A stretch of 64,000 nt of DNA from an uncultured Treponema sp. (GCF_945873775.1 NZ_CAMCEC010000005.1:63770-127769), one strand, 5' to 3'. Counted from the first letter of the stretch, positions 1 to 11,146 are shown. The notes: generated from the letters alone by a model not told the origin. Program-made: numbers and translations.

Positions 1-1303
1 GTGGTGGCGAAGAGCGCCATCTTCGGAAGCATGTTCTCGTAACGCTTCCAGAGTCCTTTTTCGTTTTTGTGCTGATTCACAAAGCTTTCCACCGCATTGG
101 AGACAAAGCTCTGCGTATGGACGTTCGCATAGTCATCGATAAGAGTTTTCTTGAGATAGCCGGAATCAATCGCCTCCTTCAATCCGTATTCATAGACAAC
201 TTCTGGCATCAGGCGGTTTTCGATATACGGCGTTCCTGTAAAGTTGTAGCAGGCGACAACCTTTGTTCCTGCCGCGTCCAGTTCTTGAACAAGTCCGTCA
301 ATCGTAAGTCGCAGGCTTGTTTCCTTTGTGCGGTCGAGCATATCGTTTTTCAGGGATTTCCCGAAAGCGTGGTGCGCCTCATCGACGTAGATTCCAAGCT
401 GCCTTAGCCGGGTGAGTTTCTGGTAACGCTGGTTCGCCATCAGGGAAGAATCGTCATCGAGCATATAAAGGTCGGCGTTCGGGCTCTCGCGGATTGCGTC
501 TTCCCAGGAATCCTTGAAAAGCAGGTTCTCTGCCGAATCTTCCTTGCGCTTTTTCTTGAGAATGATTTTCTGCGATGTGGAGATGATCAGGTTGAAGTCC
601 GAGCCGTCCATTGTGCTGAGCGCGGCTCCGTCCTCTTCAAGAAAATGGAACTTGATGATTGTATCCAGCTCGTTGGCGTATTTTTCGGTAAAGACCTTTG
701 CCTTATCAAAAGTCTGGATTTCCTTGAGCGACTGCAAGACCGTCGTGTCCGGCGCGAGCACCAGCGCATTGTGGCAGAAACGCTCATCCTTCGGGTATTT
801 ATGGGCAAGCAGAAACTCATAGAAGATGCACAGCGCCATCAGGATTGTCTTTCCGGTTCCCATGGTGAGCGCAAAGATGTAGTTCGCATATTCCTGCCGT
901 AAATCCGAAAGCTGTTCAAAGAATGAAATTAGCGTGTCGCGGTTCGTCGTGTCCAAGACAGAGAAAAGCCCATCGCCGTAATAATGGCTATTGTCGAAAG
1001 TGAACGGAACAGCCGCATTCTCGTTCGCACCTTGAACCATGCGGTTTTTCCGCCAGTCATCGAACAGGTCGGCCAGGCGCGGATTCCCCAGATATTCTTT
1101 TAGGAACACATACATTTCAAACGCCTCGTACTGCGGCTTCCTCAAAAAGGCGTTCGGATTGTCCTTGCGAGGCTCGGCATTTGCAAGAATTGTGCGTGTA
1201 AGATTCGTGTACGATTTTCTGATTTCCTTTTTGTTTGCCGAATAGAACTGCCACATAATGCGGTAGAACGGAAAATCGATTGAGTTTTTTTTGACTTCGC
1301 CAT
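1..1303 (-). pseudogene. res: Type III R-M restriction subunit (DEAD-box helicase), 5' part; frameshifted at an A8 tract after codon 4-6; runs off the window edge
   Basis: Long open frame from ~1284 to the window edge contains LTMGTGKT (Walker A), VDEAHH (motif II) and NFTGTP (motif III). ATG at 1303 has a GGAGG RBS and a TAATG overlap with the upstream ORF, but it is one base out of frame unless A8 (1285-1292) is A9. Confidence 0.85.
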
Positions 1304-3229
1304 TATTTTTCCTCCGCCTGAACCGTGCATTCCCAGGATTCGCTGATAAGGTCGGTAATCTTTATATGGATTGCACCGGCCGTTTCTGGAATATCGTATT
1401 CGCCTTTTACCAGCGCGTTCTTTTCCGGGATGTCGGTGAGGGACGGGCTGAACGTTACGCCGTCGTAGTTCCAGTCGATGAACACGCTTTCGGCAAGCTC
1501 CTTCCAGTCGCTCACGTCGGTCTTTTCGATGCTGAGCTTCTGCAGCAGGTTCATCGGGAAAAAGTTCTCGATGACGAGTTTTCTTCCCTTGACTACAACT
1601 TTTGCGTCGCTGTCTCGCTTGAAGCGCAAATCCTTCTTGTCACGCAAGAGGTCGATGATTTCAAGGTCCACCCGGAATCCCATCTTGTCCGCTTCCTCTT
1701 CAAACTGCGCTTTTAAATTCGGGTCGTGCCCCATGCACACAAAGGTTATCGCTTCGACAGGCTTTGCAGGATTTTCCTTTTGCCTCTCCTGCCACACGGA
1801 AATATCCACGTTGGAAAGCAGCCTGGCGAACTCGCTTGCGGTGGCAATTCGGTTGATTCCGAGAATGCACACCTTGCGGCCGTCGAGCAGCGCGTCATAG
1901 ACATTGCTGTCGGTGAGCTGCTCCATGCCCATCGCTTCGCAGATAAGGCGTTTGGCTTCCAGCTCGTTGCGGAAGAATTCGTAGTCGTTTACGTTATAGA
2001 CTTCAAAGCCTGTGTAGAAAGTGCCGGTACGGTCTGGGGATTCCCGTGTCGGGGCACGGGAATGACATTTCGTAGAAAGGGTTCCGTTTGAGGGATCAGA
2101 GGGGGGGGAAGCCTTCCCCCCCCTGCGTCGCACTTCGTTGCGCCGACACCCCCGCAACGCCCCCGTCATTCTGCGAAAACAGCGTGTCATTGCCGGGCTT
2201 GACCCGACAATCTATCTCCTTCGCCGCTTTCAGAAGCCGTTTTGTGGTGGTCTGGATGGCGCCCAGGTTGATGTCCGCGCCGATAAAGCGCCTGCCGAGC
2301 TTCATGGCGACCGCCTGCGTGGTGCCGCTGCCCATAAAGCAGTCGAATACGAGGTCTCCGGGATTGGAAGATGCCTTGATAATGCGTTCGAGCAGGGCTT
2401 CGGGCTTTTGGGTGGGGTAACCAAGAAATTCTTTACTTGCAGATTTCGTTGTAGAACTCTGTCCAATTTCCCAAACATCATCTGCTTTCTTTTCGTAAAA
2501 CATTTCATAGATTAGGCTACCATCAGGATTTCTTGCTGAAACCAACTTTCCTAATTCTGAAGACCAAATGCGTTTATCACGTTTAGTCGGTTTATCAAGA
2601 GGAATCATAATTGTATTTGCAACAAAACAATTCCCTTTTTTGAACCAAAGGATATTATTGTGATTTGTAGCAAAACCTTTTACATTTCCCTGAAAATTAT
2701 CCGCATAATGCCAAATTATTTCATTCACAAAATTTTGATTTCCGAATACTTCATCAAGAAGTAGTCTCAAATGCCCGCTCTTATGCCAGTCGCAGTGCAG
2801 ATAAATGCTTCCGTTGTCCGCCAAAAGTTCCCGGCACAGAATCAGGCGCTCGTACATGAACTGCAGGTATTCGTCGTTTGTCCAGATGTCGCCGTACTGC
2901 TTTTCCTCGAACGTGGTGCTGTCGGTTTCCGCACTTTTTCCGCGCAGCTCAATCTTCTTCTTGTAGTCCGCCTTGGAATCAAACGGCGGGTCAATGTAAA
3001 TCAGGTTCACCTTGCCCCGGAAGTTTTTTAGCAGGTGGCTCATCACCTGCAGGTTGTCGCCCCAGTAGATTTTGTTCCGCCAGCCGTCCACGTCGTCTCC
3101 GTATCTTTCCTTCAGCTGCGCCGGATAATAGGGCGTGCCGGTAAAGGGGCGCTTTCCCGTCCATCGCAGTTCCGGGTAGCCGCGGATCGGCTCGTAGTTG
3201 AATTCAAAAAGTTCTTTCTGGTCAGTCAT
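1303..3229 (-). pseudogene. mod: Type III R-M methyltransferase subunit (N6-adenine MTase), split into 2096..3229 and 1303..2190 by a frameshift at G8/C8
   Basis: Has IYWGDNL, IYIDPPF, YPTQKPEALLERII and DCFMGSGTT...GADIN motifs. The second frame continues FYTGFEVYNVNDY and ends directly at res. Deleting one base in G8 or C8 (2101-2123) fuses the frames. Confidence 0.85.
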
Positions 3230-3239
3230 GTTTTCCTCG

Positions 3240-6206
3240 TTAAATGTTTTTTCCGCAATAGAATCTGAAGTCGCATTCGGCGCACTGGGCGGGGGCGCAT
3301 TTTCCGCTGCGTGTAAAGTTTTTTCGTTCTATTTTGTGAACAACCTCGTCCACTTCACTGATTGTTTTTTCCACGGAGCTGTTTTCATATCTGTAGCTGA
3401 TTACCGGATTTTCATCGCTTGTGCCTGTGTAGAATAGGTTCAGCCGGCTGATTTCCTTTCCAGTACGCTCATGGAGAATCTTTGCATAGATTTCGAGCTG
3501 ACGGCGGTATTGGGAAAGCCGTTCCTTGCTTTCCTCGTTGTTTACATCTGGCTTTTTGCCGGTCTTAAAGTCAAGAATTTCATAAGTGCCGTCCGAGCCG
3601 CGCACAAGGTCGATTTTTCCTTCAAGAATGTAGTCTTCCTTTTGGAGAGTAACAGGAACTTCCGCCTCTTTTACTTTCTGCCAGTCGTCTTTTGCATAAT
3701 CCACATAGTTCTGAATATTCTTTAGCACAACTTTTAAACTGCTTTCTGAAAAATATGCGTTCTGTGCTTTTGAAATCTGCCGGTAGTTCTCTGCTAGCCA
3801 GAAGTCAATTTTTTCTTTGGTGATTTCGTTTGCCCTGCCTTCAAGAACTGTCCTGTGAATATCCTCGATTGTCTGATGGACAAGTGTTCCGAACAGAAAC
3901 GAGTTATTGCGCACCGGCATAAATTCCAGTTCTCTGTAAAACTTGTACTGCAAAGGGCAGGCTTCATACAAAAGAATATGGCTGGTAAATGAATATTCGT
4001 GCTTTATCTCGCTTGTTTTTACTTCTTCCAGAACTGGAATTGTGTTTCCGCTTTTGAACAGCTCTTCCCAGTCCGGCACATCGTTACATATAGAAGAAAA
4101 ATATTTTGAGGGGCAGTTGCGCTGCCGTTCCGCCCGGTTTCCTCGTGAAGTGTCAATGTCGCTCAATACAAGCAGATTCTGTGCGCGGCTGAATGCGGTG
4201 TAGTAGAGCCGCCAGAAATCAAAATACTTTGTGCGGTTGAGCGGCTCCCATGGTGTTTTTTGGTGATAGAAATTTGCTATGTCCTCATCAAGAGTGTCAA
4301 AATTCTTGCGTGGAGTTCTGCCAAGAGAAGTTACAACAGTTATGGGAAATTGTAATCCCTTTGACTGGTGAATTGTCATAAAGCTTATACAGCCGCTCGG
4401 AGTTGCCATGTCAAAGTCTTCGTATTCTTCAAGGCCGCCGTCATACAGAAAATGAAGGTAGTTTCCAAAAAACTGCTTCAGCACCCAGTACAGCTTCTTT
4501 TTTTCAGAGATGAAGACATTCACATTGAACATCGCTTCAAAACGTGTCAAAAGCTGGCTGAACTTTGCAAGATTGTAGCAGGGGCGCAAATCCTGCACAC
4601 CTGAATCAAGTTCCACATCAAGAAGCTCCTTGAATAGCGGAAACTGCAAAAGCTGATAGAACAAATCCGCAAATGCGTAGTCGGTGTTGTGTGTAAGGTT
4701 GTTCAGCTCCTTGAATTTCTGCGTCGCAAAAATCAGAAGTTTTTTGTGCTTTTCCTTGTCTTTTCTGATTTCATCTCCAAAAAATCTTGAGCAGTTCTCA
4801 TAATATGAATAAATATCATCTTGTTTTCGGCTGTCTGATTTTGGCTTTAAGACTTCCTCAATCAGATTTGGAAAGATGAACATATAAAAGCCCACTGCAA
4901 GACGGATTTCTTTACGCTCAAAAAACATATCGCTTCTGGGACTGAATGTGGGGATTCTGTGTTCTTCAAGATATTGCGCAAGAAAACGTGTGTTGTCATT
5001 TTTTACAGAATATGAAAGGACTGCAATCTGATTGTAGTTTTTTAGAATGTTTTTCTGACGTAATATGCTGATAAAATCTAAAACTTCCTTGCACCATGTT
5101 TCAACTTTTGCGTCTCCCATGACGCGGACCACGCCGGGATAGTTCTCCTGTTCCTCCGTGGTGTTTTTTGCATGAAGAATCGTCTTGTCATAGCGGAAAA
5201 CTTCTCCGTTTTCTCCTTGCCAGTCGCCTGAGCCGCCGTCCTTATCTTCAGCAAGCCATGGGGGTTTCATGTATTTGTTGTAGAAACTGATGATGTCTTT
5301 GTGCGAGCGGAAATTTCTGTTCAGCTCGATTTTTTTACATTCACCTTTTGAGAAATTTTCCTGAAAGCGCAAAATATTTTCTACAGTTGCGCCACGGAAA
5401 CGGTACAAAGCCTGGTCGTCATCGCCTACAACACAGATTCTGTTTTTAGGCGCGGCAAGCTTTAAAAGAATCTGCTCTTGAATACGGTTTGTGTCCTGGT
5501 ACTCGTCTATCATCAGATATTGGATTTTCCTGCGCAAATCATTCAAGACAAAATCGTCTTTTAAAAGTTCCCACATCATCGTCTGAATCAGCGAAAAATC
5601 CAAAGCATTTCGTTCGGAAAGAAGCCCTCTGTATTCTTTTGTGAGTGCGGCAAGAACTGGAAGCGTTTTACTCTCTGTGCAGGCGGAAAGTTTTTCCAGG
5701 TCAAGATTTTCTTCGCTTGGACGGCTCACAAGGGCCGCAATTTTTTTTGCAAAATTCCAGCCGAAATGTCCGCTTACAAGAGTGTCAAGATTTTCTATTT
5801 TATTGAACCGTTCTGAATTTTGAAAAATAAGATACTGCTTTTCAAAGTCATCAAGCACGCGGTAGTTTCTTTTTAGTGTTGTGTGGGCGCGGTATTCCTC
5901 AAGAATGTTCAGAAAAATCGAGTGGAGCGTGCCAATGTACATATCAGAAATATTGATTGTTATTCCAAGTTCATGGGCAAGAGAAGAAATTCGGCTCACA
6001 AGTTCCTTCGCCGCTTTTTCGGTAAAAGTCGCCACTAAAATGCTGGATGACGGAATACCCAAATCTGCGACAAGATGAATCACCCTGTCCACAAGCGTTT
6101 TTGTCTTTCCTGCTCCAGGGCCCGCAATTACAAGAAGCGGCTGTTCGGTGGTGAGGATAACGGATTGTTGCTCCTGTGTGGAGGCGGAAAAGTCTAAAAC
6201 TGGCAT
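3240..6206 (-). CDS. UvrD/REP-family helicase fused to a C-terminal PD-(D/E)XK (RecB/Cas4-like) nuclease
   Basis: AGPGAGKT, IDEYQDTN, VGDDDQALYRFRGA and MTIHQSKGLQF helicase motifs. C-terminal YEACP...GKIDLV...DFKTG...QLEIY...CAPAQCAECDFRFYC. Confidence 0.9.
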   Translation of the reverse strand: MPVLDFSASTQEQQSVILTTEQPLLVIAGPGAGKTKTLVDRVIHLVADLGIPSSSILVATFTEKAAKELVSRISSLAHELGITINISDMYIGTLHSIFLNILEEYRAHTTLKRNYRVLDDFEKQYLIFQNSERFNKIENLDTLVSGHFGWNFAKKIAALVSRPSEENLDLEKLSACTESKTLPVLAALTKEYRGLLSERNALDFSLIQTMMWELLKDDFVLNDLRRKIQYLMIDEYQDTNRIQEQILLKLAAPKNRICVVGDDDQALYRFRGATVENILRFQENFSKGECKKIELNRNFRSHKDIISFYNKYMKPPWLAEDKDGGSGDWQGENGEVFRYDKTILHAKNTTEEQENYPGVVRVMGDAKVETWCKEVLDFISILRQKNILKNYNQIAVLSYSVKNDNTRFLAQYLEEHRIPTFSPRSDMFFERKEIRLAVGFYMFIFPNLIEEVLKPKSDSRKQDDIYSYYENCSRFFGDEIRKDKEKHKKLLIFATQKFKELNNLTHNTDYAFADLFYQLLQFPLFKELLDVELDSGVQDLRPCYNLAKFSQLLTRFEAMFNVNVFISEKKKLYWVLKQFFGNYLHFLYDGGLEEYEDFDMATPSGCISFMTIHQSKGLQFPITVVTSLGRTPRKNFDTLDEDIANFYHQKTPWEPLNRTKYFDFWRLYYTAFSRAQNLLVLSDIDTSRGNRAERQRNCPSKYFSSICNDVPDWEELFKSGNTIPVLEEVKTSEIKHEYSFTSHILLYEACPLQYKFYRELEFMPVRNNSFLFGTLVHQTIEDIHRTVLEGRANEITKEKIDFWLAENYRQISKAQNAYFSESSLKVVLKNIQNYVDYAKDDWQKVKEAEVPVTLQKEDYILEGKIDLVRGSDGTYEILDFKTGKKPDVNNEESKERLSQYRRQLEIYAKILHERTGKEISRLNLFYTGTSDENPVISYRYENSSVEKTISEVDEVVHKIERKNFTRSGKCAPAQCAECDFRFYCGKNI

Positions 6207-10357: not shown

Positions 10358-11146
10358 ATGCCGATTATTACAAAGCCGAATTTTTTTGACGCAGATTATT
10401 TTTTTGTTTGCAAAGGAAATGAAATTCTAGTAAAGGACAATTCTTTAATTTCAAAAAAAGAATTTGAATTTTTTGCAAATGAAACTTTTTCAGACGACTG
10501 GTATATAGAAACAAATCTTTCATACAGCGCAGCCTTGGCAAAAGAAAATTGTTCACTTCCTGAAAACTGCAAATTTATTTCCGTCCGGCAATTCTGCTTT
10601 GAGCATAAAGAAACCGCATTCCCCGTTTCAAGAGCCGCAAGCATTTTAAAGCAAAGAAGCACATTTAAATTCTGCCCTTCATGCAAAGGAAAATTAATTG
10701 ATGACGAAACTGAATCCGCAAGAAAATGCCCGGACTGCAAAACAAAATTTTTTCCGCGGATAGAGCCTGCCACAATAACGCTCGTTTCCAAGAAAGATGA
10801 AATTCTTCTTGTAAAAAATAAAAATTCCGCATACAAAAATTACGCCTGCGTTTCAGGTTTTGTTGAACAAGGTGAAACTCTTGAGCAATGCGTCGCACGG
10901 GAAATAAAAGAAGAAACAAACATTGAAGTTCAAAATATAAAATACTGCGGAAGCCAAGCATGGCCGTTTCCAGACCAGCTCATGCTAGCGTTCACGGCGG
11001 AATACAAAAGCGGCGAAATAAAAATTCAAGAGTCTGAAATTCTTGAAGCCCGCTGGTTCAAAAGAAATGAACTTCCTCCAGAATCACAGTTGCCTCGTCC
11101 AGGTTCTGTAGCATGGAATTTGATAAATGGAATTTTTAAAAGCTAA
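10358..11146 (+). CDS. nudC: NADH pyrophosphatase (Nudix, zinc ribbon)
   Basis: FCPSC...CPDC...FPRIEPA; GFVEQGETLEQCVAREIKEE Nudix box; SQAWPFP. Start moved to the ATG after GGAG. Confidence 0.92.
   Translation: MPIITKPNFFDADYFFVCKGNEILVKDNSLISKKEFEFFANETFSDDWYIETNLSYSAALAKENCSLPENCKFISVRQFCFEHKETAFPVSRAASILKQRSTFKFCPSCKGKLIDDETESARKCPDCKTKFFPRIEPATITLVSKKDEILLVKNKNSAYKNYACVSGFVEQGETLEQCVAREIKEETNIEVQNIKYCGSQAWPFPDQLMLAFTAEYKSGEIKIQESEILEARWFKRNELPPESQLPRPGSVAWNLINGIFKS

Follow-up and report, generated by a model that had tools for sequence, protein, structure and literature searches.

The mod gene of what is putatively a restriction-modification (R-M) system of type III (3229-1303, minus strand) was characterized in a 64-kb stretch of DNA from an uncultured Treponema sp. 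(hereafter the window, to which all coordinates refer), and comparison of the gene with its relatives argues that mobile repeats in the inter-domain linker of Mod probably gave rise to a contingency (phase-variation) switch for the R-M system. The genome is 2.59 Mb in size, has a guanine-plus-cytosine (GC) content of 39.5% and is 99.9% complete. In the window, mod is split into two frames and the break is a hairpin, G8-AAGCCTT-C8 (2101-2123, plus strand; G8 at 2101-2108 and C8 at 2116-2123). Sequences that are identical elsewhere differ in the lengths of both arms of this hairpin and of the T/A run beside its loop.

Insertion in the inter-domain linker of Mod

The Mod linker is 74 residues long in the window (QTTTKRL to GFEVYN), with ~165 extra bases and ~55 extra residues. 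The best 120 homologues were collected for comparison, of which 106 could be scored, and the linker is 13-25 residues long in 88 of these with a mode of 19 (67 proteins). Four homologues that are 90-94% identical (P0003, P0005, P0006 and P0008) join KVAKDLGGQLQTENQLYTGFEVY directly, and DNA alignment confirmed the extra block. The initial annotation, made from the window alone, had proposed that roughly 60 codons of repeat DNA lie in mod and that an alignment with homologues would reveal a much shorter junction. Both proposals held: ...TTKRLLKVAK meets YTGFEVY over 13-25 residues in close homologues, and the difference between 74 residues here and the modal length fits the proposed size. The GC content of mod without the insert is 49.5%, that of the insert is 62% and that of the insert core is 77%. 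These comparisons support the view that the linker is long because dispersed palindromic repeats were inserted there, between methylase core and C-terminal domain.

In the direction of mod, the insert is made up of five segments. It begins with a repeat unit in mod sense (unit B, 2212-2186), which is followed by a 21-nt spacer with an orphan AATGAC at its end (2185-2165, minus strand; by direct reading, GTCATT at 2165-2170 on the plus strand). A shortened copy of a GC-rich element comes next (2164-2101, minus strand, 64 nt), recognized by a search with a sister allele and by alignment of the element family. The insert ends with a 34-nt spacer (2100-2067, minus strand) and a second repeat unit of a 28-nt subtype (unit A, 2066-2039, minus strand). 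The 21-nt spacer had no separate match in the genome, and its orphan GTCATT is possibly the remnant of another unit. Some copies of the GC-rich element in other genomes run on into sequence similar to the 34-nt spacer, with matches that extend to query positions 110-128.

In a further set of alleles (P0002, P0007 and others; locus L008), the same linker position is occupied by a different insert. This insert consists of three units of the hairpin family GTCAY-N3-GAACTYGTTTC-N3-RTCTC (L008:3700-4100) and is read as the peptides LKQVQGDN, SHAELVSAS and PKQVPCD. The family has dispersed copies in 19 of the 61 genomes compared from the genus (G070, G006, G067, G004 and G043 among them) and was not found in the genome under study. 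It resembles repetitive extragenic palindromic (REP) sequences, with covarying stems and inverted doublets. The presence of another repeat family at the same site in the L008 group indicates that the linker was invaded at least twice independently.

Dispersed repeats that make up the insert

Unit B (2186-2212, plus strand, 27 nt; GTCATTGCCGGGCTTGACCCGACAATC) is translated in Mod as DCRVKPGND, and unit A (2039-2066, minus strand; GTCATTCCCGTGCCCCGACACGGGAATC) is read as CHSRAPTRESP in the frame of the C-terminal domain. The mod-frame peptides over the two units are ...EIDCRVKPGNDT... and ...KCHSRAPTRESPD..., respectively. Direct reading and translation thus agreed with the initial annotation, which had placed two units of a GTCATT...AATC family inside mod, on either side of a GC-rich stretch with the G8/C8 hairpin. 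The stem of unit B has one mismatch, which suggests that this unit is a decaying copy.

The GTCATT...AATC sequences form a genuine and mainly intergenic family, as had been claimed. The window contains 12 occurrences of the seed GTCATTSCCG compared with 4.4 expected, a number that none of 100 shuffles reached. The pattern GTCATT-N6-CTTGA-N6-AATC was detected 154 times in the genome and not once in a reversed control. Among these copies there are 52 distinct stems, and in 101 of the 154 copies the six variable stem positions are wholly complementary. A looser hairpin scan detected 218 units in the genome, including the 28-nt subtype elsewhere. Nearly all units are intergenic, in short frames or at gene ends, and the mod copies alone lie deep in a long gene. 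The most common arrangement is an inverted doublet with the units ~11 nt apart and their GTCAT ends facing outward. The family therefore has the traits of REP-type repeats: a short imperfect palindrome, high copy number, a mostly extragenic location and inverted doublets. It was detected in 36 of 61 genomes of the genus, ~8 of which exceed 50 copies. A search with PF01797 for a Y1 transposase of the REP-associated tyrosine transposase (RAYT) kind had no match in the genome and matched 6 of 14 control genomes, and a RAYT/Y1 transposase was accordingly rejected as the mobilizer of the GTCATT units.

The GC-rich core belongs to a different element with a unit of ~78 nt (GGGGGCGTTGCGGGGGTGTCCCCCGCAGAAGGGGGTGTCGGCGCAACGAAGTGCGACGCAGGGGGAAGGCTTTCCCCC), sharp ends and no GTCATT units flanking its copies elsewhere. 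With the sister copy from locus L007 as query, 118 of the 151 genomes examined from the genus yielded the element, at up to ~70 candidate sites per genome; the same query matched the copy in the window with 79% identity (E value of 3e-29). Forty copies yielded a consensus of three hairpins with compensatory changes in 8 of 18 pairs, in which hairpin 3 has the form G5..C5. The L007 entry in this consensus-structure alignment has wrong coordinates and was disregarded. A search of Rfam with the element gave matches at chance level only, and a known RNA family was rejected as its identity.

The GC-rich element is frequently part of protein-coding sequence. About 22 of 52 fetched loci have it in frame and deep within long open reading frames (ORFs), and both orientations are used for coding with one frame each, which gives the peptides GESLPPASHSVAPTPPSAGDTPATPP or GGVAGVSPAEGGVGATKCDAGGRLSPS; mod uses the second orientation. 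The element peptides GESLPPASH...TPATPP and GGVAGVSPAEGG...RLSP were detected in housekeeping genes, and the host genes include those for ATP-binding cassette (ABC) ATPases, PurF, CarB and a GTPase. The purF and carB genes of the genome under study provide empty sites, since they do not contain the element and align with clean gaps of ~25-40 columns. The only other copy of the element in this genome is intergenic (C23). In four species (L118, L122, L124 and L132), the element occupies the same loop of PurF, after ...RPLCxG and before YIxxSE at approximately position 1500 of the locus, and these copies are of different variants and occur in both orientations. The PurF loop may have received recurrent insertions at one site, or a resident copy may have been inverted there. 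A search of the literature found no paper describing an RPE-like element family (see below) in the housekeeping genes of gut Treponema.

The copy of the element in mod is shortened and flanked by GTCATT-family units, and its third hairpin is hyper-expanded and length-variable. A deletion of 19 nt between two direct repeats of GGGGGTGTC removed hairpin 1. Loci L007 and L010 have the full 78-nt element with a third hairpin of G5-AAGGC-TTT-C5, and the corresponding hairpin in the window lineage is G8-AAGGC-TT-C7 or C8. The hairpin runs are G5/C5 or shorter in L007, L009 and L010, and homologues without the insert have no tract. Locus L009 contains the first unit and the GC-rich element and does not contain unit A, which argues for stepwise assembly or later loss.

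The initial annotation had proposed that a single composite repeat landed in the linker and carried the slippery tracts with it. The insertion of dispersed repeats was upheld, but the GC-rich middle proved to be a separate, genus-wide element that normally is not flanked by GTCATT units. A single mobile composite of unit, core and unit was ruled out by the copies without such flanks and by the usual doublets, which are oppositely arranged. The proposal that the tracts arrived ready-made had to be abandoned, since the element consensus and the sister alleles have G5..C5 and growth to G8..C8 is specific to the lineage. Comparison of the alleles indicates that the tract is derived from the hairpin of the mobile element and was expanded after insertion.

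Reading frame through the insert

Five alleles with different recognition regions (P0025, P0027, P0029, P0030 and P0032) have a single open frame through the insert, and only one of the three frames of the L007 insert is open, in register with mod. In the window lineage, the deletion of 19 nt and the gain of 4 nt in the hairpin give a net change of -15 in the ON allele (full-length Mod; see below) and the frame is kept. From the deletion up to the hairpin, 11 codons are in a different frame from that of the sister alleles. What is conserved is the continuity of the frame and not the peptide.

The stretch VKPGNDTLFSQNDGGVAGVSAQR is encoded by the insert. AlphaFold, with an alignment of 40 sequences, modelled residues 40-340 and 405-640 as folded and residues 342-404 without secondary structure (predicted local distance difference test values of 24-30). 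The insert is thus predicted to form a disordered linker between two folded domains. The insert has two properties of Rickettsia palindromic elements (RPEs): it is made of dispersed, multi-copy hairpin repeats, and its host ORF is open where orthologues do not contain the element. These observations support an RPE-like reading of the insert, in frame, by intact alleles. The open ORF and the predicted disorder of the linker lend indirect support to the presence of the inserted peptide in Mod.

Length variation of the hairpin and ON/OFF states of mod

The first of the two frames of mod, ORF A (3229-2096, minus strand, 377 aa), contains DPPF, a target-recognition region and FMGSG and encodes a complete core of a beta-class N6-adenine methylase. 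Beyond the core, ORF A extends across the initial portion of the insert and terminates with ...QGGEGFPPL* at a TGA (2096-2098) just past the hairpin. The C-terminal domain is encoded in the +1 frame (2190-1303, minus strand), as determined from translated ORFs, from FYTGFEVY... to the stop codon. Translation of the alleles showed that ORF A and the C-terminal frame are fused when the hairpin loses one base or gains two. The fused protein of 641 aa is present in public data (P0001). Over 6229 nt, sequence L004 from another run differs from the window by a single tract base, and it encodes the fused protein.

Contigs from 16 public runs (ten studies; cattle, sheep, pig and faecal samples) were aligned to window positions 1950-2300. 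These length data are per-run consensus contigs with depths of 7-59x. The contigs differ from the window solely inside 2101-2123, by -1, 0, +1, +2 or +3 bases. Two runs have an ON length: X13 with G7/C8 (-1) and X2 with G8/C10 (+2). The window length of G8/C8 (0), which is OFF by one base, was found in X1 and X10. The +1 state is also OFF and was reached in four ways on the plus strand: G9/C8 in X3, X4 and X9; G8/C9 in X5, X6, X7, X8 and X14; G9-AAA-GCC-TT-C7 in X11 and X17; and G8-AAAA-GCC-TT-C7 in X12. Run X15 has G9-AAAA-GCC-TT-C8 (+3) and is OFF. Runs of G9-10 and C9-11 are present in further alleles of this sequence, and public assemblies that are identical apart from the hairpin contain at least 16 length variants of it.

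The same length variation was evident at the protein level. The cluster of P0001 at 90% identity has 30 members, and the 15 listed members are otherwise identical proteins of 377, 378, 412, 413, 414, 641 or 642 aa, one further length of 537 aa being that of a listed member ended by the edge of its contig. Translation of the reconstructed alleles reproduced the lengths of 377, 378, 412, 413, 414, 641 and 642 aa. The ON forms are 641-642 aa long. The OFF forms are 377-378 or 412-414 aa long, and in these the core and the recognition region are intact and the C-terminal domain is out of frame. Tract variants of otherwise identical strains thus give both ON and OFF frames, as in phase-variable regulons (phasevarions). 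The initial annotation had suggested a phase-variation switch, and the polymorphism of ON and OFF tract lengths between otherwise identical public sequences agrees with it.

The contig of X11 breaks at the hairpin and that of X14 breaks ~20-40 nt from it, which hints at length mixtures within these samples. Run X13 was the only run labelled as RNA-seq that contained the locus (9795-nt contig, depth of 45), and its ON length may reflect a strain difference, carried-over DNA or transcriptional slippage. The first G5 run of the GC-rich element (window 2160-2164) also varies, with one additional base and an earlier frame shift in P0134. Cattle, sheep, pig and faecal metagenomes contain 97-98% of the 31-letter words sampled from the region.

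Evaluation of the proposed switch

The following sequence of events would account for the alleles. The inter-domain linker was colonized by small non-coding hairpin repeats, namely two REP-like units and one copy of the GC-rich element. In the window lineage, the element lost 19 nt between direct repeats, and its terminal hairpin grew from G5..C5 to about G8..C8. The two homopolymer arms would slip during replication, with the result that the length of the hairpin changes far faster than its surroundings, and mod would move between full-length ON and truncated OFF forms.

An alternative is that mod is decaying: the gene would have become dispensable after the insertion, the hairpin would drift and the ON alleles would be chance in-frame states without function. 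The prevalence of OFF lengths, which make up 14 of the 16 runs and 34 of the 41 contigs, and the OFF length in the sequencing run of the genome itself (X1) are what decay would produce. However, a single substitution is the sole difference among all listed cluster members in residues 1-360 and in the C-terminal domain, and there are no mismatches over 6.2 kb, which includes part of res. At least five different length combinations reach ON, and the sister alleles with shorter tracts are full-length across five recognition regions. We therefore regard decay as improbable.

Homopolymers and inverted repeats are trouble spots in sequencing and assembly, and a constant tract whose G/C homopolymers are miscalled in short-read assemblies could mimic length variation. 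The use of consensus contigs and the breakage of the X11 and X14 contigs at the element or close to it are compatible with such an artefact. On the other hand, the depths of the contigs argue against miscalling, the hairpin (23 nt) is shorter than the 31-letter word of the assembler, and X5, X6, X7 and X14, which are from one study, all have the same +1 length. Alleles differ between studies, some variants alter the T/A run beside the loop and not just the G/C runs, and the independent ENA, NCBI and Logan assemblies agree on the set of lengths. An artefact is thus very improbable.

Slightly less probable still is recoding, in which the G8/C8 allele would yield full-length Mod by a +1 shift of the ribosome at CCC CCC C ahead of UGA (CCC-C runs with a stop codon are shift-prone) or by transcriptional slippage: the -1 (ON) length of X13, the only RNA-seq-labelled run, is in its favor, but that contig may be derived from DNA or from a strain with ON-length DNA, the sister alleles have no need of recoding, and programmed frameshifting was judged unlikely since the commonest alleles are +1 and would require a different shift and no shift site is conserved across alleles.

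The origin of a contingency switch from mobile repeats remains the probable explanation, and several observations weigh against it. Only 2 of the 16 runs and, among listed cluster members, 7 of the 41 contigs have an ON length, where free drift would give about one third. All of the length data are per-run consensus contigs. The tracts in the window are 8 nt long, which is below the cut-off of 9 nt for mononucleotide tracts used in PMC5909438, although other alleles have 9-11 nt. The switch is located after all methylase motifs, unlike the switch in classical phasevarions. No transposase was found for either repeat family. Precise insertion boundaries and target duplications were not definable, and the closest empty allele is only ~80% identical at the DNA level.

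Locus and neighbouring genes

The mod gene (from 3229) lies between the genes for a UvrD-like helicase-nuclease (6206-3240) and Res (from 1256), and the three are consecutive on the minus strand. Mod residues 74-328 match Pfam N6_N4_Mtase (E value of 3e-52), and in fold comparison Mod is closest to 6k0w and 4zcf, type III Mod subunits of H. pylori and EcoP15I, over ~570-680 alignment columns. No homologue of the C-terminal domain was detected at the sequence level in Pfam or the PDB, and the only match obtained was that of the fold of the entire chain to type III Mod subunits. The start of res (3-1256, minus strand) lies 46 nt downstream of the mod stop codon and encodes a ResIII helicase domain; Res at full length is 919-995 aa in related loci. 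The N6_N4_Mtase and ResIII domains of the adjacent genes, together with the fold matches, assign the pair to the type III systems. The upstream gene (3240-6206, minus strand), a fusion of a UvrD-like helicase and a PD-(D/E)XK nuclease, precedes mod-res in all related loci.

The short region between mod and res has acquired other defence genes in related loci. It contains an AbiEi/AbiEii toxin-antitoxin pair in two loci, L007 and L010 (5020-6443), and a gene for an AAA_14/DUF4143 ATPase in L008 (4924-6120). Alleles P0025, P0027 and P0029 have a common N-terminus, insert and C-terminal domain and unrelated central recognition regions. This swap maps to window positions 2330-2830 (Mod residues ~150-270), and such domain shuffling is typical of type III mod genes. 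The AATGAC end of unit B provides an ATG at 2190 in frame with the C-terminal domain, with no evident ribosome-binding site, and in the G8/C8 state this could in principle allow the domain to be produced on its own, as a protein of 295 aa.

The GC content of mod without the insert is above that of the genome, which suggests that the island was gained horizontally. Public runs mostly assemble a contig of ~9-11 kb here, several of nearly equal length (11,002-11,009), and the mod island may be bounded by repeats and mobile. The genome under study contains three FlaA genes and no Fib_succ_major domain, and the named relatives of Mod are mostly from Treponema. A Fibrobacter origin was rejected on these grounds, and the genome is treated as that of a Treponema-like spirochaete of the gut or rumen. 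The nearest named mod-res locus, with the insert included, is L011 (CAKUTF010000008.1), which is from a Hadza gut metagenome-assembled genome labelled 'uncultured Fibrobacter sp.'. The difference between this label and the spirochaete genome of the window could be due to mislabelling, a binning problem or horizontal transfer of the island.

Relation to known systems and significance

RPEs are palindromic elements of ~100-150 nt that occur in frame in Rickettsia genes (Ogata et al., 2000, as summarized in PMC10969869). As they are portrayed in that summary, RPEs and the Treponema elements alike are short, dispersed, non-autonomous hairpins that occur in frame in unrelated genes and are read as an extra peptide in tolerant surface or linker regions, and in both cases orthologues without the element provide empty sites. 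The Treponema elements are smaller (27-28 and 78 nt), and we treat them only as an analogue in view of their size, composition and host. The host here is a free-living gut spirochaete, whereas the RPE host of the summary is an obligate intracellular bacterium. In addition, two families are stacked at one site in mod and one of them appears to have been turned into a frame switch.

Phase-variable type III mod genes have been surveyed by means of mononucleotide tracts of at least 9 nt (PMC5909438), and the G[n] tract of H. pylori modH is an example (PMC5700931). The Treponema locus resembles these systems in having a type III-like mod beside res, a G/C tract within the ORF that sets the frame and many recognition regions on a conserved backbone. 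It differs in that the tract follows the whole methylase core and lies in the linker to the C-terminal domain. The tract also is a complementary, hairpin-forming pair that is visibly derived from a mobile element.

REP sequences and the inverted REP pairs called REPINs, with RAYT as the associated transposase, have been described as families tagged by GTAG and CGTC (PMC3733652). In the features outlined there, the Treponema units are similar: they are imperfect palindromes of 27-28 nt that are highly repeated, nearly always extragenic, often arranged as inverted doublets and patchy in distribution between species. All Treponema copies have the head GTCAT(T), unlike the GTAG and CGTC tags of the families outlined in that source. 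Furthermore, a Y1 (RAYT/IS200-type) transposase was not detected in the Treponema genome, and two of its units are intragenic. Correia elements of Neisseria have been considered to generate phase variation (Siddique et al., 2011, as cited in PMC10969869), and these also are miniature mobile repeats proposed to make gene expression variable. In the account given there, Correia elements act beside genes through promoters, inversion or mobility, whereas the Treponema element lies within the coding sequence and its own arms would slip.

Given its position beyond the methylase core, the switch may be one that acts on restriction alone. The OFF state may not abolish methylation: the OFF forms keep the catalytic core and the recognition region, and OFF cells could therefore stay methylated. 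We consider it a tentative and rather doubtful proposal that the switch uncouples restriction from modification, with OFF cells methylated and self-protected and without a Mod-Res restriction complex. If true, a restriction-only switch would be a safe and reversible means of opening and closing the cell to foreign DNA. The locus would be practical to test, since the genome apparently is from an isolate.

The birth of a contingency locus is rarely visible, and in this case its steps are legible from living alleles, which range from an empty linker of 19 residues through repeats with a G5/C5 hairpin to G8/C8 and many length variants. The analysis also provides independent evidence for an RPE-like element family within the housekeeping genes of gut Treponema. 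The locus joins two fields that usually are separate, selfish DNA within genes and phase-variable restriction-modification. It is a further, equally tentative proposal that new contingency loci in AT-rich gut bacteria arise repeatedly from mobile hairpin elements that lie in frame and have short G/C stems.

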